In this document: in pieces, positions 4,112 to 20,880 of the stretch
How the letters are laid out: the number at the start of each line of letters is the position of its first letter
Position numbering within the stretch: position 1 is the first letter of the stretch
IMG/VR virus record: IMGVR_UViG_3300048855_000042
Coordinates: 1-48,308 of that record
Strand: one strand, 5' to 3'
From: a virus
Length of the DNA: 48,308 nt
Made by a program: the position numbers and the translations under genes
The notes under the pieces: model-generated
Databases searched by the model: none
What the model was told of the DNA's origin: nothing
Seen by the model: only the letters and a program-made list of their open reading frames with translations

Positions 4112-4132
4112 GGCGTTAAAACAGATCACCGG
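4112..4132 (-). promoter_or_regulatory. Copy of the 22-bp intergenic motif (CCGGTGATCTGTTTTAACGCC)
   Basis: Shares an exact 19-mer, ATCTGTTTTAACGCCAGAA (4108-4126 minus), with 17414-17432 plus. Intergenic, oriented with local transcription. Confidence 0.6.
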
Positions 4133-4393
4133 GTCGGCATGGCGGCGATCAGGCGCCTAGAAGATCGGCCCTGGCGCCTTACCGGCTCGCCGGTTGCGGC
4201 CGGTGATCGAGCAAATGCGGATCGGCTGTGAGCGACTAGCCGGGCTCAGAACGCTATAGCCAAAGATCGCAAAAATGCGAAATTTAGTGTTGGCGGGCGG
4301 CGGCGGTCTTCACTCCACCTCCAGCCTACCCCAGGGGGGCGACCCGGCCCTCCGATGGTCGTCGTCGCCTCGTCTAGGCGAAAACACCCAAGG

Positions 4394-4933
4394 CTAGCTC
4401 AGCATTTCACTGGCGTCTGGCTCGCTAACTGGCTCACCATCGATCACGTCAACAGGCTTTGCCCTCGCGGATAGGTCACGCTCAAGACGCTGCACCGCGT
4501 CGCGTAGCTCGCCTAGGCTCATCTCGCTTAGAGGCTTCTCGCCGTCCGGTTCCTTCGGCTGTGCATAGGTGCTCGGGCCGAAGCCAGCGCGGTCTAGGAG
4601 CGTCTTTGCAGCCTCTAGACGCGTCTTGTCCGTGGCGCCTGGCTTGTCGACGAGATCGATCAGCGTCTTTACCGCCTTTGCAACGCCCGTCGTGCGCAAA
4701 TCGGCGCCAGCCTCGCCCATCATCCGCACCTGAACCTGCGGCGAACGGATGAGGGAACGCGCGGTCTTGAAGGCCTCTATACCCTCGTAACCCATTGCCT
4801 CTGCTGCTCTAAGCGGCTCATATCCTTTTAGTAATAGATCTATAAACGACTGCTGCAGCGGCGTTAATTCCGCCACACGCGTGAACGTGTCCATCCGCTT
4901 ATCAAAACCGCTCATCTGTCCATCCGTCTGCAT
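4394..4933 (-). CDS. terS: Terminase small subunit-like protein
   Basis: ORF-track 4394..4975 (TTG) trimmed to ATG 4933 (alternative ATG 4915). LTPLQQSFIDLLLKGYEPLRAAEAMGY...TRLEAAKTLLDRAGFG resembles the HTH plus core of Terminase_2-type small subunits. Confidence 0.6.
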   Translation of the reverse strand: MQTDGQMSGFDKRMDTFTRVAELTPLQQSFIDLLLKGYEPLRAAEAMGYEGIEAFKTARSLIRSPQVQVRMMGEAGADLRTTGVAKAVKTLIDLVDKPGATDKTRLEAAKTLLDRAGFGPSTYAQPKEPDGEKPLSEMSLGELRDAVQRLERDLSARAKPVDVIDGEPVSEPDASEMLS

Positions 4934-5035
4934 TTCCGCCCGACGAGAAATATAGCGAAACGCTTGCCTCGCCAAGGGTTCGCCGCGTCAAAGGCGTCGG
5001 CGCTGAAAATTATGTCGCCTTTGTCGTCTTTTCCG

Positions 5036-5064
5036 CTTGCAGATATAGACGACAAAGGCTATAG
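5036..5064 (+). promoter_or_regulatory. Sigma70-type promoter for the 5098 early operon
   Basis: CTTGCA (5036-5041), 17 nt, CTATAG (5059-5064). It lies 34 nt before ATG 5098 (SD ACGGAGAG). Close to the rhizobial consensus CTTGAC-N17-CTATAT. Confidence 0.55.
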
Positions 5065-5097
5065 CTATTCCATCAAGAGCGGGACACGGAGAGCGTC

Positions 5098-5325
5098 ATG
5101 CGCAGCACCGTCATCCACCAGCGTAATGGCTGGGCCCTCACCAGCTACGGCAACGGTTGGGCTTACAGCTTGGCGCTCACCGAAAACGAAAAGACCAAAT
5201 CAGTGTGGTTCCAGGACGACGACGCAAACGAGTTCCGAGCTCGCGTCATGGACGATGAAGGCTGGCTGCTCGACGACGCCGAGGAGCGTTTCGCAGACTA
5301 TTCTGAGGTGATGCGTGAAGATTAA
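5098..5325 (+). CDS. Hypothetical acidic 75-aa protein
   Basis: ORF with SD and promoter upstream. MRSTVIHQRNGWALTSYGNGWAYSL... Confidence 0.65.
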   Translation: MRSTVIHQRNGWALTSYGNGWAYSLALTENEKTKSVWFQDDDANEFRARVMDDEGWLLDDAEERFADYSEVMRED

Positions 5326-5585
5326 ACAACCTTCCAGCGCATGCACTGTGTAATCGCAGTGCATGAGCGGGCAGGCGAACCGCAAGACCAATAAGAACAC
5401 GGCCCATAATAAGAACAACCGCGCCCAACGATAACAGCCGCAAAGGATACAACTTATGCTGTATTATCTTTTATTATAGCGCGATCGGGGTGCGCATAGC
5501 GCAGCGCCTTGAGGCCATTTGGGGTGCAAGTGGCCTCACACGGTGTGCTTTCAGCGACTTTTTCGCTACAGACCCGGAGCCAAAA

Positions 5586-6059
5586 ATGACCATCACCGTT
5601 GAACAGCTTGTGAGCCGTGAAGTCGGCCATTGCGTTTCGTCGCTCGTCTCCACGCTGGCGGGCTCCGACTACCCGCACGGCGCCGACGATCTCGGCTCCC
5701 TGATGGATCAAGCCCAAGAACTCGCCGCGCCCGTCCCTGACTATGAGAGCGCCGCCGTGGAGGACGGTTGGAGCCGCGACCCGCACACCGGCGACTTTCA
5801 CCACAAGGAACACGGTCACGTCATCGAAACGGCCGGTTGGCAAGGTATCTGTGAAGGCTGGGACATCGAGCCCTACGACCGCGAAGTGTTCGAGCATTGG
5901 ATCGTGTCCGACTGGCTCGCTGATGAGCTGATCAAGCACGGCGAGAAGGTCGATAAGGACTTCGCAGGCTTGTGCGTCTGGGCCCGCACTACTTCCGGCC
6001 AAGCGATCTATGCGGATAGTGTGATCGAGGACATCCACGCCGAGCTGACCGCGCCTTAA
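5586..6059 (+). CDS. Hypothetical acidic 157-aa protein
   Basis: ORF-track 5490..6059 trimmed to ATG 5586, with GGAG upstream. ...EVFEHWIVSDWLADELIKHGEKV... No domain I can name. Confidence 0.7.
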   Translation: MTITVEQLVSREVGHCVSSLVSTLAGSDYPHGADDLGSLMDQAQELAAPVPDYESAAVEDGWSRDPHTGDFHHKEHGHVIETAGWQGICEGWDIEPYDREVFEHWIVSDWLADELIKHGEKVDKDFAGLCVWARTTSGQAIYADSVIEDIHAELTAP

Positions 6060-6064
6060 CACGC

Positions 6065-6086
6065 CCTGAAAATCAGCTTTAACGCC
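6065..6086 (+). promoter_or_regulatory. 22-bp intergenic motif copy (CCTGAAAATCAGCTTTAACGCC)
   Basis: Starts 5 nt after stop 6057-6059. 14 nt, including GGAG, separate it from ATG 6101. Confidence 0.6.
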
Positions 6087-6100
6087 TTTGGAGACCAAAG

Positions 6101-6256
6101 ATGCATACGCCTGGCCCCAAGCCCCGCCGGCTCCGCGCGCTCTACTGGGCCCTGATCGTGCTCTACCTGGCATGGAGCGGCCTCGCGATCGCCTCGTTCT
6201 TCGGCTTCTCACTCGTCGCCGATGACGCGACCACCTCGGAGGGGCTCCAGCAATGA
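6101..6256 (+). CDS. Small membrane protein, 51 aa
   Basis: Below the track size cut-off. ATG 6101 with GGAG upstream. MHTPGPKPRRLRALYWALIVLYLAWSGLAIASFFGFSLVADD... has one TM helix. Its stop overlaps the next start (ATGA 6253-6256). Confidence 0.55.
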   Translation: MHTPGPKPRRLRALYWALIVLYLAWSGLAIASFFGFSLVADDATTSEGLQQ

Positions 6257-6498
6257 CCCTCCTCGCCTTTCCAGGCCACAAATGGCACCGCTGCGAGAAG
6301 CCTGGGTGCCTCTTATGCGAGCACAAGCTGGCGCTGTGTGTCCGCTGCGGCGGGGCGGAAATCTCGCTGCCGACCGACTGCCCCGGCGAGCTCATGACCG
6401 ACGAGCAGGAAGCCTCGGTCGAGTTCGGCAAACTCAACTTTCGCTTCGGCCGCGGATGGGTCTGCGAGCCAGCGCATAAACGGAGATTTGGGCCATGA
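6253..6498 (+). CDS. Cys-rich (zinc-ribbon-like) 81-aa protein
   Basis: HRCEKPGCLLCEH...CVRCGG...DCPG. Confidence 0.65.
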   Translation: MTLLAFPGHKWHRCEKPGCLLCEHKLALCVRCGGAEISLPTDCPGELMTDEQEASVEFGKLNFRFGRGWVCEPAHKRRFGP

Positions 6499-6602
6499 TC
6501 CGCACCGCCTTATCCCTCGCCGCCGACTTCGTCGCCTTTATCGTCTACATCGCCGGCGTCTGCGGCCTCGTCATCGGCTTTTCCGCTCTCCTCGGCGCCT
6601 AG
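6495..6602 (+). CDS. Possible 35-aa single-TM peptide
   Basis: ATGA overlap with the upstream stop. MIRTALSLAADFVAFIVYIAGVCGLVIGFSALLGA. Too short to be certain. Confidence 0.4.
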   Translation: MIRTALSLAADFVAFIVYIAGVCGLVIGFSALLGA

Positions 6603-6675
6603 GCAGCCGGCGCACCCCGCCTCGGCCGTTCTAGGCCCCTTTCTGGCCATTCTCGCCCCATCAGGACCGTCGACA

Positions 6676-6855
6676 ATGCCGAACGCCACCTTCACCGCCT
6701 TCTGCAACCGCCTCGCGGCGCTCTACGCTGCGCAAAACGCCCTGCGGCTTGCATACCCATTCTACGTCGCGATCCACACCCGGTGCACCTTTGACAGCCT
6801 GGAGAGCGACACCCGCGAAAAATGGCGCGCCATAGATGCCATCGTTTGGTGCTGA
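6676..6855 (+). CDS. Hypothetical 59-aa protein
   Basis: Just under the track cut-off. Third codon positions are almost all G/C. MPNATFTAFCNRLAALYAAQNALRLAYPFYVAIH... Confidence 0.5.
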   Translation: MPNATFTAFCNRLAALYAAQNALRLAYPFYVAIHTRCTFDSLESDTREKWRAIDAIVWC

Positions 6856-6981
6856 ACCGAAAAGGACCACCGCCATGATCTTCATTTTCTTACGCCTCGG
6901 CTGCGCAATTGCGCTCCTCGCCCTCATCGCCTCCGGCCACGGGTAGCTCGACACCTCCAACCCGTCTAGATTTGCTCCCCG

Positions 6982-7419
6982 TTGGCGCCCACCGCTTCAC
7001 GGGGATTTTCTTTGTCCAGATCACTCGCCCTCACCACCCTCGCCGCTGCGCTCGCGCTCTCCGCCTGCGTCAGCACCGCTCAGGAACAACCCCGCACGGT
7101 TCGCCCTGGCAAGCTCGCCTACCAAGTCACCTCGAAGCCACAAGGCCCGTACACGGTCGCCCTCTGGTTCGACACGACCGGCCGGCGCCGCAATGACGCC
7201 GCCAAGGAGCAAGACCTCGCGGCCTGCCGCTTCGCGATCCAATCCATCGCGGCCTCTCGCCCGCCTGGTGTCTTCTTCCCGGGCTCGGGCGCAAACACCG
7301 CTGCCGCCAACATCATCAATGCCGACGAGCCCGACTTGCCGAGCTTCGACGATTGCATGTTGGCGCGGGGTTGGCGCTTCGTCGGATATGCCCGTCCCGA
7401 CGACACCGGCACTCCCTGA
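6982..7419 (+). CDS. Lipoprotein, 145 aa
   Basis: Signal peptide RGFSLSRSLALTTLAAALALSAC with lipobox LSAC. The start is TTG in the track and is uncertain. Confidence 0.7.
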   Translation: MAPTASRGFSLSRSLALTTLAAALALSACVSTAQEQPRTVRPGKLAYQVTSKPQGPYTVALWFDTTGRRRNDAAKEQDLAACRFAIQSIAASRPPGVFFPGSGANTAAANIINADEPDLPSFDDCMLARGWRFVGYARPDDTGTP

Positions 7420-7429
7420 CGGACCCCAA

Positions 7430-7674
7430 GTGTAACCCCAAAAAATTCGGCCGTGTAACGGTGGGCGGGGTATACTACGTATACACCCCTGCCACCGTTA
7501 CACATACGGCGAGCCATCGTTTCGCTCATATTACGTATCGTTACAAGCGTTACGCTCTACAATAAACCACTGATTATGTTCACCTTTTCGTGCAACGTTC
7601 TTTTCGGCGAGATCGTTACGGATCTTGACGAGACGAGGCCTGCTTATCTCACGCGTAACATTGCGATCGTTACG
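7430..7674. repeat. Cluster of CGTTAC-type iterons at and beyond the 3' end of the primase-helicase gene (candidate origin)
   Basis: Exact CGTTAC at 7496, 7539, 7548, 7614 and 7668 (+) and at 7455-7460 (-). Variants at 7432 and 7655. The 10-mer GATCGTTACG occurs twice (7611-7620, 7665-7674). Confidence 0.6.
7440..7503 (-). terminator. 51-bp imperfect palindrome followed (minus sense) by a T6 run, between convergent genes
   Basis: 7453-7503: GTGTAACGGTGG pairs with CCACCGTTACAC (12 bp), and GGGGT pairs with ACCCC. A6 at 7440-7445 gives U6 on the minus transcript, 7 nt after the stem. Confidence 0.5.
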
Positions 7675-9618
7675 CCGCACGCCGCCCCCTTTCTGGTGTC
7701 CTCTAGCCCTTGAAACCCAACCACTTTGGGCATGCGTCCACCACGTTTCCCAGTCGATGCCTATAGCGTATTTGTCGGCTTCCCGCTCCTCCGCCTCGGC
7801 CTCCACGAGGTCTTCCAAGGCGTCGAAAAGCTGCTGCTCGGCAGGCGTCAGCGACACCTCGAATTCCGCCGACGCGTCGACATGGCTACCAGCCGAACCG
7901 CGCTCCAGGCCCCCCACAACCAACGAGCTCACCGGCTCCCCGCGCGTGTTGGCCCATTCGAGCCGCTCGAACGTCAGCCGCCGACGCCAACCGTCCTCGG
8001 CGCCCTTCATCTTCAAGCACAGCCATTCGCCCGGCAGCGGCGGCCCGCCCTCCTCGGTCTCGCCCTCATCCTTCGACACGATGTGAACGAAATCGGCGTT
8101 GTTCAGGAAGTACACGGACCCGAGCACGTCGCCCGCCTTGTTCTCATGGTGCACGCCGATCACCGCGCCGCCGGTCGCGTTGCCGAGGGCGCCACACCGG
8201 TCCATGAGCTTCGTGACGACGTCGCTGTCGTTCAGCACCGCGCCGGAGGCGGCACGGCCCATCGTATCGACGGCTGAAAGGGTGAAACGTTTGCCGGTCG
8301 CGCGGATCTCGGCGAGGAGCTCCTTGAGGGCCTTGTCGTCCATGAAGGTCATCGCCTCATCCATGATGACGAGGCGGGACGGGTTTTCGGATAGACCGTG
8401 CTTGATCTTGAAGGCGTCCACGCAATAGCGGAACAGGCTCATGCCTTCGCCGCCTGGCGCGACGAGCAGCACGTCGTGCGGGCCTCGGGGGAGCGGCTCG
8501 CCGTGCCAAGATGGGAAACCGTAGGCGAGATGGAGCAGGAGATCGTAGACAAGGAAGGATTTGCGGGCGCCCCACTTGCCGGCGATGAGGCCGACGCCGT
8601 TGTCCTGGATGAAGCCCTTGACCAGCCAAGTCGGCTCCGGACGGGTGATGAACTCGTCGTAGGCGGTGAGATATTTCCGCTTTGGTTTCGGTTTGGCGGT
8701 GGGGTCGGCCTCGAATTCGTCATCCGGGGTGGCTGATAAGGCGCGATCACGTTCGGCCTGGCGCGCGGCGACGATATCCGGATGCGCGTCGCCGAAGCGG
8801 CCCTTGGCGTAACGATAGGCTGAGCGGGTTTCCTTGTCGGTCTCCTCGGCCGTCGCCGGCGGGACGCATTTGGGTGCCCAGAGCTCGCACATCAGGCGAA
8901 CGGCGGCGTCCTCGGAGATGCCGAACGATCGCAGCATGCAGGCACGGACATAAGCGTCATGATGGCGCGCGCCGTGCAGGATGGAAGCTGGCGGGATGGC
9001 GGCCAGGTACCAAGTGGCTTCCTCTTCGGCCTCGATCGTGTCCGGCTCGACGAGGGGCGCCTCGCCCGACCGCTCCCGCGGGATGGCCTCGCCTGCGAGG
9101 TCGATGAGCCATTGCGGCGCGGGCGCGAGCTCTGTGTCGTCTGGCCCGAGGTTTGGCGCCCATGAATAGGGTTTGCCGTCGATGGCCGATGGCGGCGCCA
9201 CGACATAGCCGTGATGGCCGCGCACGTCGACGCAGCGCGCGAGTTTGCCTTGGCTGTTGGGGACGGGTGGGCAGTCCTCAGGCAGACGGAAATAGAGGTG
9301 CCGGCCGCCCGAGGTCGTGCGCGCCGTGATGGTCGGCGGAAGCGGGCTGTGCGCGGCGATCAGCGCGAGGAGGTTTTCCTCGCCGATCGCGCCTTCCTTG
9401 TGGTCGATGTCGACGACGAGCAGCCGGTCCGTGCTGATCGCGAGGTTTTTTCCGTCCTCGAGCCATGACCGGATTTTCGTGGCGTCGGTAGTGGCGACGT
9501 CATAAAAGGCGTCAACGGCGGGCGTCTTGGAATTGCGCTTGAGGGGAAAGATCCGCATTCCGCGTCGAGCGGCCTGAAGCACAACATCTAGGTTGATTAA
9601 GCCGCTCTCTTGTGGCAT
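7531..9618 (-). CDS. Bifunctional prim-pol primase / RecA-type (AAA_25-like) helicase
   Basis: 695 aa. N-terminal prim-pol motifs (LLVVDIDHKEG, SGGRHLYF, DVRGHHGYVVAPPS). Central P-loop GLIAGKWGARKS. Confidence 0.9.
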   Translation of the reverse strand: MPQESGLINLDVVLQAARRGMRIFPLKRNSKTPAVDAFYDVATTDATKIRSWLEDGKNLAISTDRLLVVDIDHKEGAIGEENLLALIAAHSPLPPTITARTTSGGRHLYFRLPEDCPPVPNSQGKLARCVDVRGHHGYVVAPPSAIDGKPYSWAPNLGPDDTELAPAPQWLIDLAGEAIPRERSGEAPLVEPDTIEAEEEATWYLAAIPPASILHGARHHDAYVRACMLRSFGISEDAAVRLMCELWAPKCVPPATAEETDKETRSAYRYAKGRFGDAHPDIVAARQAERDRALSATPDDEFEADPTAKPKPKRKYLTAYDEFITRPEPTWLVKGFIQDNGVGLIAGKWGARKSFLVYDLLLHLAYGFPSWHGEPLPRGPHDVLLVAPGGEGMSLFRYCVDAFKIKHGLSENPSRLVIMDEAMTFMDDKALKELLAEIRATGKRFTLSAVDTMGRAASGAVLNDSDVVTKLMDRCGALGNATGGAVIGVHHENKAGDVLGSVYFLNNADFVHIVSKDEGETEEGGPPLPGEWLCLKMKGAEDGWRRRLTFERLEWANTRGEPVSSLVVGGLERGSAGSHVDASAEFEVSLTPAEQQLFDALEDLVEAEAEEREADKYAIGIDWETWWTHAQSGWVSRARGHQKGGGVRRNDRNVTREISRPRLVKIRNDLAEKNVARKGEHNQWFIVERNACNDT

Positions 9619-9650
9619 ATGACACTAGTCCTTGTGTTGCATCGTTGAGC

Positions 9651-9688
9651 GTAAAAATGGCTCGTCGGGGTGTCCGTCCCGGCGAGCC
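9651..9688 (-). terminator. Intrinsic terminator-like hairpin plus U-run, 33 nt upstream of the primase start codon
   Basis: 9659-9688 GGCTCGTCGGGG/CCCGGCGAGCC forms a 12-bp stem (2 G-U). The minus-sense RNA continues AUUUUUAC (9658-9651). Confidence 0.55.
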
Positions 9689-9730
9689 TTCTGTTTTCCG
9701 CCTGTCGTCGGCGCTTCGCAAGACGAAAAT

Positions 9731-9752
9731 GGCGATAAAGCAGATTTTCAGG
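9731..9752 (-). promoter_or_regulatory. 22-bp intergenic motif copy (CCTGAAAATCTGCTTTATCGCC)
   Basis: Begins 14 nt after stop 9767-9769, oriented with transcription. Confidence 0.6.
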
Positions 9753-9766
9753 GCGAACGGGGGCCG

Positions 9767-10003
9767 CTATGCGCCACCGGGTTTCACCTTACCGAGGAGC
9801 TCCGGCAGCTTGCGGATATTGGAAGCGACGCGGCGGGCCTCGTCTTTCGTGAGCTGCTTTTGCAGATCGCGCCGGATCGGATTGTCGTCGTAATAGATGT
9901 AGGCTATCCCGTGGCCGTTGGCACTCTGGACCTTGTAGCAGGCATCGAGCTCGACGAGTTCCCACGGCGTCTCCAGCCGGTATTTGCTGCCGCTGTCGGT
10001 CAC
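9767..10003 (-). CDS. Conserved alphaproteobacterial-type hypothetical protein, 78 aa
   Basis: ORF-track 9767..10099 trimmed to GTG 10003 (GTGA overlap with the upstream stop). ...GHGIAYIYYDDNPIRRDLQKQLTKDEARRVASNIRKLPELLGK. Confidence 0.65.
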   Translation of the reverse strand: MTDSGSKYRLETPWELVELDACYKVQSANGHGIAYIYYDDNPIRRDLQKQLTKDEARRVASNIRKLPELLGKVKPGGA

Positions 10004-10194
10004 GCGTCGCTTTCCTTCTGGATGGCAGTCGTGTTCAGGAAATCCAGGACGTGATCGCGCAAATCGGGATCGCCATAGACGACGATCTTTCTCGCCCAAT
10101 TGGGGAGGCTGATGCCGTAGCCGACGTAGTCGGCGCCCTCGTCGAGCTCGTCAGGGCCTGAGATGAACGGGCCTGATTTCGTGCTATCCTTCAT
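10000..10194 (-). CDS. Hypothetical acidic 64-aa protein
   Basis: ORF coupled to the next gene by a GTGA overlap. Confidence 0.55.
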   Translation of the reverse strand: MKDSTKSGPFISGPDELDEGADYVGYGISLPNWARKIVVYGDPDLRDHVLDFLNTTAIQKESDA

Positions 10195-10211
10195 GGCTAT
10201 GCCTCGCCTTC

Positions 10212-10607
10212 TCAGCTAATCGTGTCCGGGCCGAACCAACTGCTCGCAAGGGTTCCCATCGCGCCGTGGTCGATGTTGATCATGTAATCACCGTCAAAAT
10301 CCGGTGACCTGTAGAAGCGACTGTCCATGATGAACCAGTCTGACCGCTTGATACGCAGGGTCCTGGAAAGCAGGAACCAGCCGCCATTGATGCTAATGTC
10401 GCCGCCGGAGAATACCCGCGTGGCGTCTCCAACGATGTCGACCGATTTCCGATCGAAAAGGGCTTGCAACCCCTCCCAGTCGTCGTGGACCCCATCCGAC
10501 CAGATCGTCGGCCGCCGCAGGAAGTCGCTGGGTTTTACGAGAATGGCGGCCGATGTGACACTGAGCGTTCCGCGCAGGAACGAGCGCCTCGACAGTTGCT
10601 CAAGCAT
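10212..10607 (-). CDS. Tat-exported 131-aa protein
   Basis: Twin-arginine signal MLEQLSRRSFLRGTLSVTSAAILV. The mature part begins SDGVHDDWEGLQALFD, like the first turn of beta-helix glycanases. Confidence 0.7.
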   Translation of the reverse strand: MLEQLSRRSFLRGTLSVTSAAILVKPSDFLRRPTIWSDGVHDDWEGLQALFDRKSVDIVGDATRVFSGGDISINGGWFLLSRTLRIKRSDWFIMDSRFYRSPDFDGDYMINIDHGAMGTLASSWFGPDTIS

Positions 10608-10851: not shown

Positions 10852-10898
10852 GGTCATGGAGCCCGCCCCGTCAGTCTGACGAGCAACTCGCCGGCTTC

Positions 10899-12757: not shown

Positions 12758-12760
12758 CCC

Positions 12761-13279: not shown

Positions 13280-13460
13280 TGGAATTGTCCTTGTTGCTGG
13301 CCGCCGCGCGCACGGCGCGAGCCACGTCGATCCAGATCAGTTTTGTGCCGTCGGGCAGGCTTTCCCACTCGTCGGCGAGGCGCCGGCGCTCCGGGTAGCG
13401 CGCCTCATAGGCGACGCGGCCGAGCGCCAGGTCGGTGGGCGACGGGTCAGCGACCTCCAT
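13269..13460 (-). CDS. Hypothetical 63-aa protein
   Basis: ORF overlapping the next gene by 11 nt. Confidence 0.5.
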   Translation of the reverse strand: MEVADPSPTDLALGRVAYEARYPERRRLADEWESLPDGTKLIWIDVARAVRAAASNKDNSNAE

Positions 13461-13508
13461 CGTCTGGGCCCTTATCGCGCTCTGCGAGCATGGCGTCGGC
13501 CGCGTCGC

Positions 13509-13712
13509 CTATGAGGCGGCAGCAACGTGCTGCCAGCTCGTCAATTGCACGCTGTCGCCGCTGATCAGACGCGCGAGCGCCTGCCCTGCAAACCAATCGC
13601 GGAGCGAAACACCAGGATAGGTGACCTCGACGTGCGCCTTATTGCCGTCCGAGTGGGTGACTTCTTCATATCGGCTGCTCGGGAAGAATAGCCCACCGTC
13701 ATTGCGTCTCAT
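13509..13712 (-). CDS. Hypothetical 67-aa protein, first gene of the minus-strand accessory operon
   Basis: ORF. SLRDWFAGQALARL motif. Confidence 0.55.
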   Translation of the reverse strand: MRRNDGGLFFPSSRYEEVTHSDGNKAHVEVTYPGVSLRDWFAGQALARLISGDSVQLTSWQHVAAAS

Positions 13713-13824
13713 CGGATTTGTCCTCGTTGTCGTCTGCCAAATCGACTATAGCGTTTTTTCGCTTGACTGCAATAGTCGTTAAAGCATATGGTCACGGCTA
13801 TAGCAGACATGAGGCTTGTTGCCG
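13713..13824. promoter_or_regulatory. Divergent early control region
   Basis: CTTGAC at 13762-13767. Two palindromic CTATAG hexamers (13746-13751, 13798-13803). Inverted CGACTAT (13743-13749) / ATAGTCG (13772-13778). The 12-mer ATAGTCGTTAAA at 13772-13783 is shared with 27214-27225. Confidence 0.6.
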
Positions 13825-14031
13825 ATGACCGACACCCCCGATCAGCCAATCCGTGACGCCATCGAGGCTTTTCGCGAGCGCCACGGCTTGGGGCGGGGCC
13901 GCGCCGGCATGTATCTGGCGAACGACCCTTCTCTGCTTAATCGCCTGGAAAAAGGCCGCGTGATCCGCCCGGATACGGAACGGAAGCTCCGCGAGCAGAT
14001 CAAATTCATGGACAGCTTTCTCCTGAAGTGA
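13825..14031 (+). CDS. Small HTH-like regulator (Cro/Ner-like position), 68 aa
   Basis: ORF-track 13816..14031 (TTG) trimmed to ATG 13825. First gene of the plus-strand early operon. Confidence 0.6.
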   Translation: MTDTPDQPIRDAIEAFRERHGLGRGRAGMYLANDPSLLNRLEKGRVIRPDTERKLREQIKFMDSFLLK

Positions 14032-14852
14032 GGCCCGACATGGGTAAGCGATTAGGGTTGGAGATCCTCGATGAGGCATCTCGCGCCATTGGCGACCGCG
14101 GCCTGAACTACGGCAAGCCGGAAGACAACTTCGCGCGGATCGCGCGGCGTTGGCGCGTGCATTTCAAGAACCGCTACGATCTCGACGTGCCCTGCGACGC
14201 CACGGACGTCGCCATCATGGAGATCGACCTCAAGGTGGCGCGTCTGGAGAACCAGCCGACGCACAGGGACAGCTGGGTCGATATCGCGGGCTACGCCGGA
14301 TGCGGCGCCGAGACGACGATCAAGCCAGCCGAGCAGCCGATCGACCGGGAGCCGATCGACCGGGAGCCGTCGCAGTATTGGCACAATCGTCAGGAAATAA
14401 CAGAAGAGACTATCTCCGCTATCTTTAGCCCGTCTCCGCTAAAATCGGGCGCGCCGCTGCCGGTTCCTCTGAAGATCGGAGATAGCGTTTGCGTGACGAC
14501 CTCAAGGCGCCCAGACCACGTCGGTCGTATCGGTAAGATTGTTGCCTTCAGGGCACCAACAAACCGCCCGTTCAAAGTCGAATTCGATGGGTCGTTCGGG
14601 GCGTTCGGGGCGTTCGGGGCGTTCGGGGCCGCGATGTTCAGCGCTGGCGAGCTCCAGCGGGTCGATGGCGGCGAGACCAATGCAACCCACAGCCTTAAGT
14701 GCGGCGATCGGGTGCGAGTTATAGGCGGCTTGGTGAGCGCCGAATTCACGATCTACAAGATCGACGACAAAGGTCATTTCTACCTGAAGTCGCCGAGCGG
14801 ATATTTGTCGGTGACGCCGTTCCACGCCAACGAGCTGGAGCGCCTCCCGTGA
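14028..14852 (+). CDS. Hypothetical 274-aa protein (DUF6378-like N-terminus) with in-frame tandem repeats
   Basis: GTGA overlap at 14028 (alternative ATG 14040). GDRGLNYGKPEDNFARIARRW...DVAIMEIDLKVARL. Repeats at 14336-14365 and 14593-14628. Confidence 0.75.
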   Translation: MRPDMGKRLGLEILDEASRAIGDRGLNYGKPEDNFARIARRWRVHFKNRYDLDVPCDATDVAIMEIDLKVARLENQPTHRDSWVDIAGYAGCGAETTIKPAEQPIDREPIDREPSQYWHNRQEITEETISAIFSPSPLKSGAPLPVPLKIGDSVCVTTSRRPDHVGRIGKIVAFRAPTNRPFKVEFDGSFGAFGAFGAFGAAMFSAGELQRVDGGETNATHSLKCGDRVRVIGGLVSAEFTIYKIDDKGHFYLKSPSGYLSVTPFHANELERLP

Positions 14853-15337
14853 CGGTGCTCGGCCTTGATCTCGGCACCAAGTGCGGCTGGGCGGTCGGCG
14901 ATCGCCACGAGAAGATCGTCTACGGCACGTGGCCCCTGGCGCAGCGCGGAGACGCCGGCGGTATAAGGCTGGTTCGCTTCATCCGGCATGTCGAAGAGAT
15001 CACTCTCGGGGCCGACGTGAAGCAGATCGTCTATGAGCGAGTGGACGGCCATAAAGGCGTCTATGCCGCGCAGATTTACGGCGGCTTCAAAGACAATCTG
15101 CTGCGCTGGTGCGAAGACAACGGGATGCCCTGCGAAGGAATTCCGGTCGGCACCATCAAGAAATACTGGACGGGTCGCGGGAACGCCGACAAGGAGGCCA
15201 TGAAGGCCGAGGCGCTCCGGCGCGGCTACATAATCGACAAGATGGACGACAACGCAATCGACGCGCTCGCCATCGCCCATTGGTCCATCACGCAATATCG
15301 CTCGTCGGCGCCGAGTGCCGACGAGATGCTGAGCTAG
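14849..15337 (+). CDS. RuvC-like Holliday junction resolvase
   Basis: GTG 14849 (GTGA overlap). VLGLDLGTKCGWAV...IVYERV...DDNAIDALAIAHW. Confidence 0.8.
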   Translation: MTVLGLDLGTKCGWAVGDRHEKIVYGTWPLAQRGDAGGIRLVRFIRHVEEITLGADVKQIVYERVDGHKGVYAAQIYGGFKDNLLRWCEDNGMPCEGIPVGTIKKYWTGRGNADKEAMKAEALRRGYIIDKMDDNAIDALAIAHWSITQYRSSAPSADEMLS

Positions 15338-15509
15338 GCCGCCGCACGTACCAGCGGGCGCCCGCGGCCCGTCCGGGCATACCAAGTTCTGATCGTAGGG
15401 GGCGGCGACCTAGTCACTACTCACCCCGTGAAATCAGAGCAAGGCCGCGACTTATTCTTCTTTCGACTGCCGGGCAGCACGGATTTGCTGCACCAAGGGA
15501 GACTACATC

Positions 15510-15956
15510 ATGTTCGGAGCACTTAAGAAGGCATTCAAGGCTGGCGCGAAAGAGGTCGCCGCCGATTATTCGCAGAACAAGGACTATCTCGAGGCCGTCT
15601 GCGCCGCTGCCGCGCTCGTCGCCAATGCAGACGGCGAGATCGAAGACGCCGAGAAGGCCAAGGTGGCCAAGGTCATCGGCAATCACCCCGTCCTGTCGAA
15701 GTTCTACAAGCAGAACGACATCGAGCAGGTCTCCGAGCAGATGTTCAAGCGCGCCAAGGACGCCTCCGGCCGCCAGCAGCTCGCCCGCGAGCTCGACGAC
15801 ATCAAGTGGCGCGACAGCGGCCAGATGGCCGAGGACGTCTACCTCGTGGCGCTCGACGTCGCCAATGCCGACGGCGAGCTGGAGCCCGAGGAAGAGGTCG
15901 TCCTGAAGAAGATCGCCGGCCGGCTCGGCGTGGACGCCTCCAAGTTCGACTTCTGA
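15510..15956 (+). CDS. TerB-domain protein, 148 aa
   Basis: Two ADGE motifs (LVANADGEIEDAEKAKV and VANADGELEPEEEVVLKKIAGRLGV), typical of TerB/DjlA-N domains. Confidence 0.8.
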   Translation: MFGALKKAFKAGAKEVAADYSQNKDYLEAVCAAAALVANADGEIEDAEKAKVAKVIGNHPVLSKFYKQNDIEQVSEQMFKRAKDASGRQQLARELDDIKWRDSGQMAEDVYLVALDVANADGELEPEEEVVLKKIAGRLGVDASKFDF

Positions 15957-16008
15957 AGCGAGCCCTACGGGCGGCGGGCTCCGGCCCGCCAGCTCACAGG
16001 AGGAAGCC

Positions 16009-16131
16009 ATGATCTTAATGTTCGGGGTTCTCGATCGTGCGCTCGACCTGGTCGGCCTGATCACCCTCGTCTACTGGGCCGTCAAGGTCGGCTCCTGGTA
16101 CGCGCGGAAGCGCGCCGGCGCGAAGGGCTGA
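16009..16131 (+). CDS. Possible 40-aa single-TM peptide
   Basis: AGGAGG 6 nt upstream. MILMFGVLDRALDLVGLITLVYWAVKVGSWYARKRAGAKG. Confidence 0.45.
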   Translation: MILMFGVLDRALDLVGLITLVYWAVKVGSWYARKRAGAKG

Positions 16132-16134
16132 GCC

Positions 16135-17406
16135 GTGACCGACCTCTTTCCCTACCAGGAGACGGGCGCGGCGTGGCTGGCCAAGGTCGGCCGCGGGCTT
16201 CTCGCCGACGAGATGGGCTTAGGCAAATCGGCCCAGGCGATCGTCGCCGCCCAGCGGCTCAATCCCGCACCAACCGTAGCCGTGGTTTGCCCAGCTTCGC
16301 TGCGCGAGAATTGGTATCGCGAGTTCGAGCGTTTCTGGGACGGCCTTCCTTCCTACGATCTCCACGTCGAGAGTTACGACAAGGTCGCCCGGGGCGAGCT
16401 CGGCGACCGCGAATACGACGTCCTGATCCTCGACGAGGCGCATTATCTCAAGAACCACAAGGCGAAGCGCACGCAGGCGATCCTCGGGCGCAAATGCGAC
16501 GGCAAAGGTGGCCTCGTTGCCCGTGCCAAGCACGTCTTCGCCCTGACGGGCACGCCGACGCCGAACAATCCGTCCGAGCTCTGGCCGCTGGCGCGCGCCC
16601 TCTTCCCAGAGGCGATCTGGAACCTGAAGACCGAGCGGCCGATGGCCTATTGGACGTTCACTGAGCGCTATTGCGTCGTGCGCGACACCGGCTTCGGGCT
16701 GAAGATCATCAAGGGCCGGAATGTCGCCGAGCTCCGCGAGCGCCTTGGGCCGCATGTCCTGCGCCGGCGGAAGGAGGAAGTCCTTCAGGATCTCCCGCCG
16801 ATCCGCTTCGAGATGTTGCCGGTCGAAGGGAAGCTGACGCTCCCGCCTGATGGCAAAGTTGATGCGGCACTCGTCGCGGATATCCTCGAGGCGAAGGGTG
16901 TCGATGGCCTGGCCGAGATCGCGCCGCATGTCGCCTCCCTCCGCCGGCTGACTGGGCTCGCCAAGGTTGGCCCCGTCATCGAATGGGTCAAGGAATGGCT
17001 CGAAGGCGGCGGCCAGAAGCTCGTGCTCTTCGCTCACCACCGCGACGTCATCCTAGCGCTCGAAGAAGGGCTGGGCGCCGGCGTTGCCTCCGTCACCGGC
17101 GCGACAACGCCCCTGCTGCGCCAGGAGGCCATCGACGATTTCCAAAACGACCCCGGCTGCCGCGTCTTCATCGGCCAGCTCCAGGCGGCCGGGACAGGCC
17201 TGACGCTCACCGCCGCCAGCGATCTCCTCTTCGTCGAGACGTCGTGGGTGCCGGCCGAGAACCAGCAGGCCGCCATGCGTATCCACCGTATCGGGCAGCG
17301 GAACGCATGCCTGGTGCGCGTCGCCTCCCTCGCCGGCTCGATCGACGAGGACATCCAGGAAGCCCTCAAACGGAAGCTGACGGACATCCGCAAGCTTTTC
17401 GATTGA
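16135..17406 (+). CDS. SNF2-family helicase
   Basis: ADEMGLGKSAQAI (motif I), LILDEAHYLKN (DEAH), and C-terminal helicase motifs (LTLTAASDLLFVE, RIHRIGQ). Confidence 0.9.
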   Translation: MTDLFPYQETGAAWLAKVGRGLLADEMGLGKSAQAIVAAQRLNPAPTVAVVCPASLRENWYREFERFWDGLPSYDLHVESYDKVARGELGDREYDVLILDEAHYLKNHKAKRTQAILGRKCDGKGGLVARAKHVFALTGTPTPNNPSELWPLARALFPEAIWNLKTERPMAYWTFTERYCVVRDTGFGLKIIKGRNVAELRERLGPHVLRRRKEEVLQDLPPIRFEMLPVEGKLTLPPDGKVDAALVADILEAKGVDGLAEIAPHVASLRRLTGLAKVGPVIEWVKEWLEGGGQKLVLFAHHRDVILALEEGLGAGVASVTGATTPLLRQEAIDDFQNDPGCRVFIGQLQAAGTGLTLTAASDLLFVETSWVPAENQQAAMRIHRIGQRNACLVRVASLAGSIDEDIQEALKRKLTDIRKLFD

Positions 17407-17428
17407 CCTGAAAATCTGTTTTAACGCC
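17407..17428 (+). promoter_or_regulatory. 22-bp intergenic motif copy (CCTGAAAATCTGTTTTAACGCC)
   Basis: Starts immediately after stop 17404-17406. 13 nt, including AAGGA, lie before ATG 17442. Confidence 0.6.
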
Positions 17429-17441
17429 AGAAAGGACCGCT

Positions 17442-18038
17442 ATGTCTATCGAACTGCATATCTCCGCCGACGGCCCCAAGGAATTCGCGAACCAGCTTCT
17501 CGGCGTCTTAGGCGCGCTCGCCTTCGCCGGCGGCAAGACCTTCGTGTCGGGTGCTCCGGAGACCTTCGCCCCCGCTGCGCAATCAGAGCAGCCCGCGCAG
17601 GAAGATCTTTCCGACGAAGTCGCGTCAAAGCTCGGATCCGCACCTGCGCCGGCCGAGCAGCCGAAGCGCACCAGGCGCACGAAGGCCGAAATGGAAGCCG
17701 CCGCACGCGCCGAGCAGCCGGCCGAGCAGTCCGCTCCGACGGAAGCGGTCGAGGCGACCCCGGCGGAAGCCGTCGCTGAGCCCGTTCCCGAAGGCGAAGA
17801 GATGCCGGAGCCGATCTCGATCGAGACGCTCTGGAACAAGCTCGACCGGGTCATCAAGGAGGTCAACACGCCGACCGCCGCGAAGATCCTGGCGAAGTTC
17901 GGCGTGCGGAAGGTGCGCGACCTGACCGACGAGCAGAAGCCGAAGTTCCTGGCGGATGTCGACAAGGCGGGTGCCATCATCGACAGCGTCCCCGGCGAGC
18001 AGCGCGCTTCCGACATCGCCAAGGCGCTCGGCCTCTAA
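17442..18038 (+). CDS. Hypothetical acidic 198-aa protein
   Basis: ORF with a low-complexity Ala/Glu/Pro centre. Confidence 0.7.
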   Translation: MSIELHISADGPKEFANQLLGVLGALAFAGGKTFVSGAPETFAPAAQSEQPAQEDLSDEVASKLGSAPAPAEQPKRTRRTKAEMEAAARAEQPAEQSAPTEAVEATPAEAVAEPVPEGEEMPEPISIETLWNKLDRVIKEVNTPTAAKILAKFGVRKVRDLTDEQKPKFLADVDKAGAIIDSVPGEQRASDIAKALGL

Positions 18039-18130
18039 GGCCGGCGCTGGCGCACGGCTTAGCTTCTGGTTGACAGAGCATCTGACTATATTCCTATTTG
18101 TCTCGAATGTTCACGCTATAGGCAGGGACC

Positions 18131-18358
18131 ATGAAAATCGCAGCGAGCGAAATGCTTGTCGTCGAGGATACCTCCATGGGCACCATTCTGGTGACGATCA
18201 GCGATGGGTATCTGGTCCTAGCCCAAGGCCAGATGGCAGTTTCGGTTGACGAGGTCGAGGCGATCAAATTCGCGAACGCGCTCCTCGGCTACGCCAACCG
18301 GAACGCCGTCAACCAGGACGAGCCACGTGTCGACATCGTTGAGGGGACGGAACAATGA
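18131..18358 (+). CDS. Hypothetical 75-aa protein
   Basis: ORF. ATGA overlap with the next gene. Confidence 0.6.
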   Translation: MKIAASEMLVVEDTSMGTILVTISDGYLVLAQGQMAVSVDEVEAIKFANALLGYANRNAVNQDEPRVDIVEGTEQ

Positions 18359-19578
18359 CCGCAACGAGCACGGATGCTCATTCAAAGCGGGCGCACGCCC
18401 GCCTCGCACCGAGCGCGGCCTCGCGCTGGTGGAATTGCCCGGGGTCCGTCAAGGCGACGGAGGGCATCGAGACGAAGTCGTCCTTCTTCGCCGACGAGGG
18501 CACCGCCGCCCATACGCTGGCGGACTTATGCCTGCGGACGGGCCATGACGCCGATCGGTTCCTCGGCGGCTGCGTCGATATCACGACCGGCGAGGTGTTC
18601 GACGTCTGCTCGGACGCGATGAAGGAGAAGGACGGCGTCTTCGAGATCGACGAGGAGATGGCAGGTGCCGTCCAGGAATACCTTGATGAGGTCCGCTCGA
18701 TCGTCGACACCGGCGCCGACGAATTCGAGATCGAGCAGCGGCTTGATATGACGGCCATCCACCCGGACCTGTCCGGGACGGGCGACCTGGTCTGTTATAA
18801 GCCGGAGACGTGCAAGCTCGTCGTTTGCGACTTCAAATACGGCAAGGGCGTGCTCGTCTCGCCGGTCGAGAACAAGCAACTCCTCACCTATGCCGTCGGT
18901 GCCGTCCGGCGCTTCCGCAATTGCGGTCTCGACGCGATCGAGCTCGTGGTCGTTCAGCCGCGGGCGCAGGGCCAGACTATCAAGCGCTGGACGATCGGCG
19001 GCCTCGATCTCCTCGAATGGGAAGCCGACCTCGAGGACGCCGCGAAGCGAACGGATGCGCCAGACGCGCCGTTCAAGGCCGGCGAGTGGTGCCGGTTCTG
19101 CCCGATCGCCGCGACCTGCAAGACGAACCGCGAGGCGGCCGCCGAGGCCGCGCAGGCGGAGTTCTCGGGGGAAGGCACCGTCGTCGTGCGGAAGCCCGAC
19201 GAGATGACGTCCGGCGAGCTCGCAGCCGTCCTGCGCAACGCCACCGTGCTCAAGAACTGGTTCCGGGCGGTCGAGGCGCACGCCCATGCGGAGGCGCTCG
19301 CCGGCCGCACTCCGGACGGCTTCAAGCTCGTGCCGAAACGCCCCACCCGCAAGTGGAAAGACGAGGCCGAGGCCGAGCTGACGCTGACGGTATTGGGTGC
19401 CGACCCGTTCGAGAAGAAACTGCTCTCTCCCGCCAAGGCCGAGAAAGCCCTCGGGAAGGCCAACAAGGCAGAGCTCGCCGACCTGATCATACCGGTGTCG
19501 AGCGGCACGAACCTTGTGCCTGTGGAGGACGAACGCCCGTCGGCCGTGCAGTCGGCTGATCAAGAGTTTGGGGGTTGA
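18355..19578 (+). CDS. PD-(D/E)XK / Cas4-like nuclease (DUF2800-type)
   Basis: HARLAPSAASRWWNCPGS at the N-terminus. DLVCYK...VCDFKYGKG core. C-terminal Cys cluster WCRFCPIAATC. Confidence 0.85.
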   Translation: MTATSTDAHSKRAHARLAPSAASRWWNCPGSVKATEGIETKSSFFADEGTAAHTLADLCLRTGHDADRFLGGCVDITTGEVFDVCSDAMKEKDGVFEIDEEMAGAVQEYLDEVRSIVDTGADEFEIEQRLDMTAIHPDLSGTGDLVCYKPETCKLVVCDFKYGKGVLVSPVENKQLLTYAVGAVRRFRNCGLDAIELVVVQPRAQGQTIKRWTIGGLDLLEWEADLEDAAKRTDAPDAPFKAGEWCRFCPIAATCKTNREAAAEAAQAEFSGEGTVVVRKPDEMTSGELAAVLRNATVLKNWFRAVEAHAHAEALAGRTPDGFKLVPKRPTRKWKDEAEAELTLTVLGADPFEKKLLSPAKAEKALGKANKAELADLIIPVSSGTNLVPVEDERPSAVQSADQEFGG

Positions 19579-19580
19579 GC

Positions 19581-19832
19581 ATGAACTGCGAGGAAAGCGC
19601 CATTGGGCGCGCCGTTCAGGCGCGCGCGATACACCACGGCCTCATTGTCGAGGACGTCGTTGTCCAGCCGAGCGATCACTGTCTCCTGGTCCGCATCATC
19701 GCGGCTTACCTGCCGAAGATCATTCTGGTGCTGGACGAGCGGGTCGACCAGGAGGAGGCCGAAGGCGCTTTCGACGAGATCGTGGAACGGTTCATGGACG
19801 ACGGGATCATCCTGCGGCCGCTCCTCCACTGA
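19581..19832 (+). CDS. Hypothetical 83-aa protein
   Basis: ORF-track 19575 (TTG) trimmed to ATG 19581. Confidence 0.55.
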   Translation: MNCEESAIGRAVQARAIHHGLIVEDVVVQPSDHCLLVRIIAAYLPKIILVLDERVDQEEAEGAFDEIVERFMDDGIILRPLLH

Positions 19833-19894
19833 ATTGGCAACATCGCCGCCAGGGCGTGCCCGAAGTGCGAACAGAGAGACTAGAGGATTTAGAG

Positions 19895-20500
19895 ATGTCA
19901 AATATCTGCTTACTTCTCAAAACGGGCAACATCCGGTCGCCTCGTTGCCGCCTCGTTTGGCCCCACGTCTTCAAGCCGAAAAAGGACGATGACGGGAAGG
20001 AAAAATATCAGATTTCGCTGATCATCCCCAAGGGGTCCGACCTCGACCTTTTGAAGAAGGACGCAAGCGAAAAATTCGCGGCTATGTTCGGGAAAGACGC
20101 GAAGCCCGCGGCGTCACCGTTCAAGAATACGGCGGATAAGGAGCGCTTGGTCGACTACGCGGATGACTTCCCGATATTCATCGACGCCAGCCGCAACCTC
20201 GGCAACGGTCCCCCCGAGGTCACGACAACTCGCAAGGACCCCAATACCGGCAAGCTCGAGAAGATCGGGTCGGATCGTCAATCCGAGGTGTATGGCGGCC
20301 GCTGGGTCTACGTCTCTCTGAACGCATACGCGTGGAGCTTCAAGAGCCGGAAGGGCGTGTCGATCGGGCTCAACAACATCCAGCTCCTTGAAGACGACGA
20401 TCCGATTGGCGGCGGCCGCGTCGCGGCCTCCTCGGAATTCGAGGCGGTCGAAGAGCTGGAGGGCGGCGAAGGCGCCCGAGACGCTTCTTCGATGTTCTGA
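19895..20500 (+). CDS. DUF2815-type ssDNA-binding-like protein
   Basis: ORF-track 19514..20500 trimmed to ATG 19895. [33 protein letters not shown]. Acidic C-terminal tail. Confidence 0.8.
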
Positions 20501-20517
20501 AAATCGGCTTTACCGCC
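20496..20517 (+). promoter_or_regulatory. 22-bp intergenic motif copy (TCTGAAAATCGGCTTTACCGCC)
   Basis: The stop codon TGA at 20498-20500 is part of the motif. Confidence 0.55.
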
Positions 20518-20543
20518 TTTTTCGTCCACTCCAGGAGGATCGC

Positions 20544-20828: not shown

Positions 20829-20832
20829 CCGA

Positions 20833-20880
20833 CCGGGCGGGGCCCGTCCGAGGGCTCCGCCTGCCCGGATTATCTGTTTT
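20833..20880 (+). terminator. GC-rich hairpin plus U-rich tail after the GapR-like gene
   Basis: CCGGGCGGG (20833-20841) pairs with CCGCCTGCCCGG (to 20868), with an inner GCCC/GGGC stem. It is followed by ATTATCTGTTTTG. Confidence 0.45.

Follow-up and report, generated by a model that had tools for sequence, protein, structure and literature searches.

The early region and its 22-bp boundary motif

We analyzed the virus record IMGVR_UViG_3300048855_000042 of IMG/VR over its full length of 48,308 nucleotides (hereafter the window), in which a 22-bp motif, CCTGAAAATCNGCTTTAACGCC, recurs at gene boundaries of the early and replication region. The two ends of the record (1-127 and 48182-48308) are identical over 127 nt, which points to the assembly overlap of a circular contig and therefore to a genome of 48,181 bp, with a G+C content of 64%. 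The window is a temperate tailed phage, whose helix-turn-helix (HTH) regulator genes are of XRE-like and Cro-like types and whose GapR gene suggests an alphaproteobacterial host. Its main features are:

From about 13825, rightward: early/replication operon, encoding a Cro-like HTH protein, a DUF6378 protein, a RuvC-like resolvase and a TerB-domain protein; continuing with an SNF2 helicase, a PD-(D/E)XK exonuclease, a gp2.5/Enc34-type single-stranded DNA-binding protein (SSB) and a GapR-like protein; and ending with an HTH_23 protein, a methyltransferase and a DNA polymerase
7531-9618, leftward: PrimPol-helicase gene, the last gene of the leftward early operon
26732-27199, minus strand: XRE-family HTH repressor gene
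25388-26716, minus strand: integrase gene, adjoining the tRNA-Glu gene
25053-25127: tRNA-Glu gene (Rfam 15 match)
Minus strand: virion and lysis genes

Our analysis identified four solid copies of the motif and one partial copy. A search with CCTGAAAATCNGCTTTAACGCC at up to three mismatches returned exactly four matches in the whole genome, where 0 are expected (100 shuffles), and equally good matches were therefore confined to these four sites, all at gene boundaries. A position weight matrix derived from the four copies scored them at 34.5-37.6 bits, against 8-18.5 bits for the best match in each of 20 shuffles used as background. A preliminary description of this DNA had counted five near-identical copies; the fifth, at 4112 on the minus strand, scores 19.5 bits and is partial only, while the exact 19-mer that it was said to have in common with 17414-17432 is indeed present. 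The copies, with their mismatches to CCTGAAAATCNGCTTTAACGCC, are:

6065..6086, plus strand: full motif (A and B halves, 0 mismatches), between gene 5490-6059 and the gene for a 51 amino acid membrane protein (6101-6256)
9722..9752, minus strand: full motif (9731-9752, 1 mismatch) with the fused repeat CGCCATTTTCGTC, 112 nt upstream of the PrimPol ATG at 9618
17407..17428, plus strand: full motif (1 mismatch), immediately 3' of the SNF2 helicase TGA and 13 nt from the ATG at 17442
20496..20526, plus strand: full motif (20496-20517, 2 mismatches) with the fused repeat CGCCTTTTTCGTC, overlapping the SSB stop codon and 26 nt from the GapR-like ATG at 20544
4112..4132, minus strand: partial copy (B half intact, A half degenerate), 96 nt upstream of the open reading frame (ORF) 4015-3788
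20865..20895, plus strand: degenerate copy (ATCTGTTTT GCCGACTTT TCCGAC), 3' of the GapR-like gene

All full and partial copies lie between 4112 and 20517, and the sites number about 11 when half-sites are included. The copies had been described as intergenic throughout, which holds in general; the 20496 copy includes the stop codon of the SSB gene, with its first 5 nt coding, and for 4112 an intergenic position requires the downstream gene to start at the ATG at 4015, whose ribosome-binding site is AAGGGAGAG. The spacing to stop and start codons is likewise as claimed: the 6065 copy begins 5 nt past the TAA of 5490-6059 and ends 14 nt short of the ATG at 6101, and the 9731 copy starts 14 nt beyond the stop codon of 9767-10099. 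As a qualification, the nearest downstream start codon is 112 nt away for the 9731 copy and 96 nt away for the 4112 copy. With its 3' flank, the 6065 copy forms two 9-bp units, TTTAACGCC-TTTGGAGAC. The 4112 copy is found 8 nt upstream of the -35-like CTTGCAGA, and directly 3' of 9722..9752 there is a -35-like TTGCGA, an inverted GACGACAGG, and then a hairpin (9688-9659). This hairpin is a strong one of 13 bp with T runs on both strands, resembling a bidirectional terminator 35 nt upstream of the PrimPol start; an analogous hairpin is present upstream of PrimPol in the related prophage L003 described below (L003 ~5494-5520).

All five copies (5/5) are oriented with local transcription, in agreement with the preliminary description; on its own, this orientation rule is suggestive but weak (p ~0.06).

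Analysis of RNA folding gave no sign of structure. The contexts of the five copies have fold z-scores of -0.6 to +1.7, none folding better than shuffled sequence, and the motif itself (0 to -3.2 kcal/mol) is an AU-rich, unfolded stretch within a GC-rich transcript. The view that it is neither a hairpin nor a terminator is borne out: the four full copies have no stem, and the terminator scan found a weak 5-pair stem abutting the partial 4112 copy only. Structured RNA signals were rejected on the same z-scores, and Rfam 15 gave no match at the motif (E<=1), the tRNA-Glu being its sole match.

Half-sites and short repeats at predicted promoters

The motif is bipartite, with an A half (CCTGAAAATC) and a B half (GCTTTAACGC) whose centres lie ~10.5 bp apart, which would place both on one face of the helix. 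The B half is near-palindromic, as 8 of its 10 positions equal their own reverse complement, and in the form YTTTAMCGMC it occurs 10 times against 0.25 expected, nine of the ten occurrences being noncoding. Beyond the full copies it is found in five places: the two late-promoter duplicates, the divergent early region, the DNA upstream of the XRE repressor gene, and position 36080. A 12-mer, ATAGTCGTTAAA, is exact both in the early region (13772) and upstream of the repressor gene (27214-27225); allowing up to one mismatch it has 3 matches against 0.01 expected, the third (1 mismatch) lying in a late promoter. Occurrences of the A half are limited to the full copies, the 5002 site and, in inverted form, the late promoters.

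The B half also belongs, as a single unit, to a 9-bp tandem family, TTWNNCGNC-WTTNNCGNC, which has 16 matches against 0.66 expected, 12 of them noncoding and many abutting -35-like hexamers. A tighter form, CGYCWTTKTCGYC, is present in 5 copies against 0 expected, all co-oriented with transcription: two are fused to the motif copies at 9731 and 20496, one accompanies the A half at 5002-5028 directly upstream of CTTGCA-N17-CTATAG, and the remaining copies of this type (42452-42487 and 25316-25333) adjoin -35-like hexamers. The 22-mer is thus the most strongly conserved part of a wider set of short repeats marking the regulatory DNA of the phage. Promoters, here and throughout, are predictions made by eye or by consensus scan. 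The sites outside the full and partial copies are:

5002..5056, plus strand: A half GCTGAAAAT and three 9-bp units (TATGTCGCC TTTGTCGTC TTTTCCGCT), abutting CTTGCA-N17-CTATAG in the regulatory region of the operon that starts at 5098
13772..13784: B half in the divergent early regulatory region
27213..27231, plus strand: B half and two 9-bp units (TTTAACGAC TATCGCGAC AATTACGAC), upstream of the XRE repressor gene 26732-27199 (minus strand)
36072..36089, plus strand: TTTGCAGAC-TTTAACGCC, with a B half, in an intergenic gap and antisense to the flanking late genes
42452..42487, minus strand: four tandem 9-bp units (CTTGACGTC TTTGTCGTC TTTTGCGAC TATAACGCC) in the gap between the portal gene and the next gene
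25316..25333, minus strand: two 9-bp units (GTTATCGTC TTTGTCGCC), then TTTGCAGA, in the repeat-rich spacer between the integrase and tRNA-Glu genes
3506..3532, minus strand: B half CTTTAACGAC and inverted A half CAGATTTTCGG, upstream of the tail-protein gene
46652..46678, minus strand: late-promoter duplicate, CTTTACCGAC and inverted A half, upstream of a gene for a 106 amino acid protein

Several of these sites coincide with predicted promoters. An inverted unit, GACGACAAAGGC (5045-5056), lies within the spacer of the promoter predicted for the 5098 operon. The B half at 13772 lies in the spacer of a tool-predicted rightward promoter (TTGACT-18-TATGGT) and just 3' of TATGCT on the opposite strand, and 27213..27231 overlaps a predicted minus-strand promoter, CTTGAC-N17-CGATAG. 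The first unit of 42452..42487 includes the -35-like CTTGAC. The site at 5002-5019 had been taken for a shortened copy of the motif; it exists, but as an A half fused to another repeat (CGCCTTTGTCGTC) rather than a simple truncation. The partial copy reported at 36079-36089 (ACTTTAACGCC) was recovered, antisense to the local genes.

Both halves had also been noted within two 85-bp direct repeats. Both are there, but the repeats are really a 113-nt duplication with 88% identity (89 nt identical; 3457-3569 and 46603-46715), and in both duplicates the A half is inverted relative to transcription. In each of two late operons the duplication takes in the promoter, the leader and the first 9 codons; one of these operons starts with the tail-protein gene, the other (TerL/portal/capsid) with the 106 amino acid, holin-like gene. 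Divergence between the duplicates is confined to a 14-nt block, flanked by the conserved sequences CTATTGA and CGTTrTAkkC, a pattern that corresponds to a -35 element, a spacer and a -10 element. At the tail-protein gene, CTTTAACGAC covers about -8 to +2 of the predicted promoter TTGAGT-N17-TAGTCT and is followed by the inverted A half. We also considered whether the inverted A half lets the late-gene 5' leaders pair with the early motif over 10-13 bp, and rejected it, since the duplex energies of -15 to -22 kcal/mol do not improve on the genome-wide background, whose mean is -22.

Other repeats were observed near these regions. The tail-protein gene has an internal 100-nt direct duplication with 83% identity (2792-2891 and 2990-3089), and about six tandem copies of the 10-mer AGCCCGGCTC (3696-3764) sit in the weakly coding gap 3484-4393 between the tail-protein and small terminase genes. 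A perfect 23-bp inverted repeat, CGCCTCATAGGCGACGCGGCCGA (13401-13423 and 13496-13518), flanks the gap between two small leftward early genes, and a related 15-mer, GGCCGCGTCGCCTAT, is found just upstream of a late promoter (3560-3575). The spacer between the tRNA-Glu and integrase genes (25128-25387) is dense in repeats (GGCCAATTA three times, TTTGTCGC-type units, and ATCTGTTTTAAG), which are probably arm-type sites of attP, excisionase sites or promoter sites. Finally, a plus-strand gene at 46770-47597 encodes a methyltransferase-like protein (PHROG 8156) amid the minus-strand late genes and has a lower G+C content, as in a moron.

Repeats at homologous junctions of related prophages

The closest relatives of the window phage are the Chelatococcus prophages L003 and L004 (= L083, C. 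caeni DSM 103737), whose helicase and capsid proteins are 68-69% identical to those of the window. A search of a genome collection returned one close relative only, the C. caeni prophage L004, and no near-identical DNA was found among GenBank phages. A search based on the portal protein found only phages with unrelated early regions. Rhizobium phage RHph_N65 is alike in gene order, but at its helicase junction there is a gene overlap and no repeat. The sole contig encoding the 198 amino acid neighbour protein is a 7.6-kb Logan contig, 100% identical to the window. For the XRE repressor of the window no close homologue was found, the best other match being 34% identical and located on a 1-kb contig.

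Scans with the CCTGAAAATCNGCTTTAACGCC pattern gave 2 single matches in viral contigs and 55 in metagenome contigs, none of them otherwise similar to the window; since they are single matches in unlike contigs and their number is as expected, we regard them as chance matches. The motif was proposed earlier to be a phage-specific cis element, and our results agree with this, as it is found elsewhere by chance only and the homologous junctions of the relatives carry different repeats.

The repeat of L003 and L004 is TGTTGCGAGTTGCGAAAA, consisting of two 7-bp direct units. The 21 kb of L003 contain 9 matches (0.01 expected), every one on the same strand as the replication operon, and an additional co-oriented copy of this type is found behind the capsid gene, on the other strand, in an L003-type phage. 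The distance from the end of a TGTTGCGAGTTGCGAAAA copy to the ATG is either 0-1 nt or ~14 nt. A variant in L003, TTGCGCGAGTTGCAAAAA, overlaps the palindrome GCGCAAATTGCGC directly upstream of the early rightward -35 element. A third related phage, L005, carries the repeat TTGTCTGGTTT (7 matches against 0.16 expected), which forms the arms of a 22-bp palindromic operator-like site, AGAACCAGACA..TGTCTGGTTCT, just upstream of its Cro-like gene; its helicase junction has a single co-oriented copy, CTGTCTGGTTT.

At the junction between the helicase gene and the next gene, homologous to that at 17407, L003, L004 and L005 carry their own repeat. Both this junction and the one following the SSB gene carry a copy in the window phage and in L003: the 20496 copy is homologous to the L003 copy 3' of its SSB gene, and the degenerate 20865..20895 matches in position the L003 copy behind its GapR gene. 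Taken together, three related phages with three different sequences follow one rule, in which a piece of the phage's own early operator region is repeated at the boundaries of its early operon; in each of them, the junction behind the helicase gene has a copy or a half-site of such a sequence.

Two further differences were observed in these genomes. The gap that follows the capsid gene (capsids 68% identical) contains a GC-rich hairpin and a Shine-Dalgarno sequence in the window (40251-40312), and a boundary repeat directly abutting the ATG in the L003-type phage L228 (2240-2264). L003 has a cluster of tRNA-like direct repeats (20641-21030) after its last boundary-repeat copy, and the window has one tRNA.

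Proposed operator-like sites and the alternatives

The sites described above are non-random, noncoding and phage-specific, and they have sequence in common with promoter regions. We tentatively favor the possibility that they are dispersed operator-like DNA sites for a phage-specific regulator, similar to the stoperators of other temperate phages (PMC9283540, PMC6550527); that a protein binds them, which protein this is, and that its binding stops transcription are points that we infer. The 22-bp motif would be the double-stranded-DNA binding site of a phage-encoded regulator, most likely a part of the lysogeny/early switch, i.e., the XRE repressor (26732-27199) or a small protein of the early operons. 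At the B-type sites, which cover the -10/+1 region or the spacer of predicted host-type promoters, the bound protein would repress initiation. At the full A+B sites of early-operon boundaries, it may block or dampen RNA polymerase that has escaped from the promoter, acting as a roadblock; alternatively, the full sites might be auxiliary sites for cooperative binding or looping.

Several kinds of evidence point in this direction. The motif is highly non-random and limited to noncoding DNA of the early region, and its B half is part of a tandem family that far exceeds expectation and is mostly noncoding. Half-sites occur in both orientations and an inverted unit lies in a promoter spacer, which suggests recognition of duplex DNA rather than RNA. 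The own-operator rule in three phages, together with half-sites at predicted promoters beside two HTH regulator genes, argues for a phage-specific regulator acting on duplex DNA. The integrase, the adjoining tRNA gene and the HTH genes mark the phage as temperate, as are the phages in which stoperators have been described (PMC9283540, PMC6550527). Finally, an operator-like site alone fits every context, whether copies lie 13-26 nt or ~100 nt ahead of a start codon or coincide with promoters. Among the functions proposed in the preliminary description, a protein-binding site is accordingly the one that our results favor, while a self-contained promoter and a structured RNA signal are disfavored. 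Binding by the GapR-like protein in particular, one of the candidates named there, found no support.

Stoperators are asymmetric repressor-binding sites found in intergenic gaps, mostly in one orientation, with further sites at the early lytic promoter and at that of the repressor; their sequence changes along with the repressor, and they act by blocking transcript elongation (PMC9283540, PMC6550527). The window motif resembles those of the Cluster A phages L5, Bxb1 and TipsytheTRex in being asymmetric, phage-specific and located in short intergenic gaps with one predominant orientation, and it is the co-orientation of the within-operon copies with transcription that recalls them. Of the motif, only the B half is present at the predicted early and repressor promoters of the window, which may correspond to the promoter copies of stoperators. 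As in the stoperator case, the phage is temperate, has no RNA polymerase of its own, and differs in its motif from related phages. In the lambdoid CI/Cro operators (PR/PL/PRM) we find a parallel to the near-palindromic B half over the -10 or spacer of divergent early promoters and at the promoter region of the repressor gene, in a phage encoding HTH regulators; lambdoid operators, however, cluster at promoters, are not scattered at gene boundaries within operons, and have no orientation bias.

Several observations weigh against the operator-like reading. The window has only 4-5 full copies (about 11 sites with half-sites), all in the early region, compared with ~30 stoperators throughout each Cluster A genome, and the site is bipartite and 22 bp long rather than a 13-bp unit. 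Also unlike the stoperator case, its host is alphaproteobacterial, and the candidate repressor, an XRE HTH protein of the usual kind, has a short C-terminal domain and shows no sign of a second DNA-binding domain. At the early and repressor promoters nothing corresponds to the A half, and such a restricted distribution indicates that a model with a single protein is incomplete. Several copies of the L003 repeat reach to within 0-1 nt of the start codon, more in the manner of a translation-start element. The 5/5 orientation is weak evidence, and the B-only sites at 27213 and 36080 break it; the promoters on which the comparison relies were predicted by eye or consensus scan only; and with no close homologue of the repressor and only three or four relatives, covariation did not link any binding protein to the motif. 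By the definition of the stoperator family, the motif does not belong to it.

A different possibility, which we consider unlikely, is that the motif acts in RNA as a start-associated element upstream of the ribosome-binding site, where a bound phage or host factor would tune translation or translational coupling of the downstream gene in the manner of the start-associated sequences (SAS/ESAS) of Cluster K phages or of a T4 RegA-type operator. The full copies are all in the sense orientation and occupy the gap from a stop codon to the following ribosome-binding site, three of them 13, 14 and 26 nt from the ATG; the motif is found only near non-structural genes, and its AU-rich, unstructured sequence is like a ribosome standby or S1 site. 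The Cluster K sequences (PMC3203893) are, in the same way, repeated non-palindromic motifs in one orientation, placed in stop-to-start gaps of non-structural genes, sometimes including the upstream stop codon, missing from other genomes, and without an explained function. The L003/L004 repeat is a closer likeness to them than the window motif, as several of its copies, including one after the capsid gene, end 0-1 nt before the ATG and take the place of an obvious Shine-Dalgarno sequence. The window motif, in contrast, lies upstream of the Shine-Dalgarno sequence and does not contain it, and its distances to the ATG (14, 13, 26, 112 and 96 nt, i.e., 13-112 nt) exceed the 3-7 nt of the Cluster K sequences. 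The 9731 and 4112 copies and the 5002 variant, 96-112 nt from the start and upstream of -35-like hexamers, may even be outside the mRNA of the downstream gene. Half-sites that are antisense, in both orientations and on core promoters do not fit an RNA element, nor does the L003 copy at 5539, which is antisense to the PrimPol operon, and a match in Rfam is lacking. The element is most like stoperators in its logic and most like start-associated sequences in its placement, and is a member of neither as defined.

Internal (middle) promoters specific to the phage, at which an activator or sigma-appropriating factor of the phage would redirect host RNA polymerase to initiate directly 3' of the motif and so re-boost the replication genes, are in our view quite unlikely. 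This explanation accounts for copies that are intergenic, co-oriented and phage-specific, with junctions that differ in sequence among the relatives; TCTGCTTTAACGCC is closely similar to the -10/discriminator/start region TATGCTTTAACGAC of three predicted promoters, and the resulting leaders would be 14-26 nt long with a Shine-Dalgarno sequence. Our sigma-70 consensus scan nevertheless found no match at any copy: no -35 element is conserved at 16-18 nt from either candidate -10, and neither of these hexamers (TCNGCT and TTTAAC) has the essential A as its second base. Pfam and PHROGs searches of the early genes and of every ORF of at least 600 amino acids identified no RNA polymerase or sigma domain and no MotA/AsiA-like protein; four of these ORFs correspond to PrimPol, the DNA polymerase, the portal and a large ORF containing the 546 amino acid terminase, and two without a domain match (1050 and 689 amino acids) are located among the virion genes. 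The L003 repeat abuts the ATG without any -10-like element, and the 9731, 4112 and 5002 copies lie upstream of separate -35-like hexamers instead of replacing them.

Promoters of the T7/T3/SP6 type were rejected, as the preliminary description had anticipated. They are similar to the motif in being contiguous conserved sequences of ~20 bp that are intergenic, co-oriented, phage-specific and divergent among relatives, but the window phage has no RNA polymerase gene among its ORFs of at least 600 amino acids, all of which were examined, and it is temperate with host-type promoters. The CtrA box (TTAA-N7-TTAAC) was also rejected, as the motif reads GAAA-N7-TTAAC and the first half-site is missing in all copies. 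Checked by eye or script, the sigma-54, ECF, sigma-32, IHF, MotA-box and LexA-type consensus sequences do not fit every copy.

It is very unlikely that the copies lack a regulatory role and arose as linker repeats, carried to module boundaries by recombination, or as remnants of duplication. Mosaic junctions are compatible with such an origin (the helicase is 69% identical to that of L003 but the next gene only 32-38%), as are an indel after the SSB gene, non-homologous genes upstream of PrimPol, a phage-encoded exonuclease, annealing protein and RuvC, and an identity between copies that reaches the flanks in some pairs (the 19-mer). Direct repeats 3 kb apart should, however, be deleterious in a recombination-proficient phage unless selected, the relatives retain a repeat of different sequence at the same junctions, and the half-sites coincide with promoters.

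An RNA signal for processive antitermination (boxA/nut-like), or an AU-rich single-stranded processing site, is highly improbable: the copies are in the sense orientation, GCUUUAAC is like the rrn/lambda boxA core GCUCUUUAAC, the 9731 copy is followed at 43 nt, ahead of PrimPol, by the 13-bp hairpin with its T run, and the 4112 copy by a weaker hairpin whose tail is T-rich, but the boxA match requires a 2-nt deletion (GCTTTAAC fits with a 2-nt gap only), no boxB-type hairpin adjoins the motif, no N- or Q-like family matched among the phage proteins, three copies have no downstream terminator, Rfam gave no match, and the antisense half-sites at promoters are left unexplained.

Returning to dispersed operator-like sites, our literature searches found no equivalent described for Rhizobiales or alphaproteobacterial phages, and neither stoperators nor start-associated sequences in this host group. 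To our knowledge, the stoperator strategy has so far been known only from actinobacteriophages. It is conceivable, if doubtful, that a family of temperate phages of the Hyphomicrobiales uses phage-specific "gene-boundary codes," in which copies of the phage's own early operator would be placed at the same junctions and its immunity or early regulator would block elongation there; such codes would represent an independent, bipartite version of stoperators.

If a protein of the lysogenic switch does bind these sites, genome-wide silencing by roadblock would extend from mycobacteriophages to proteobacterial phages, and a simple signature in the sequence, the recurrence of the operator half-site behind the helicase and SSB genes, would serve to predict the immunity groups of prophages. 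The motif would also offer a compact, orientation-dependent 22-bp part for studying how a bound protein arrests bacterial RNA polymerase. If it acts on translation instead, it would be a second, unrelated example of start-associated sequences. Either way, the repeats mark the regulatory architecture of an uncharacterised phage group, including its promoters, its operators and two duplicated late promoters.

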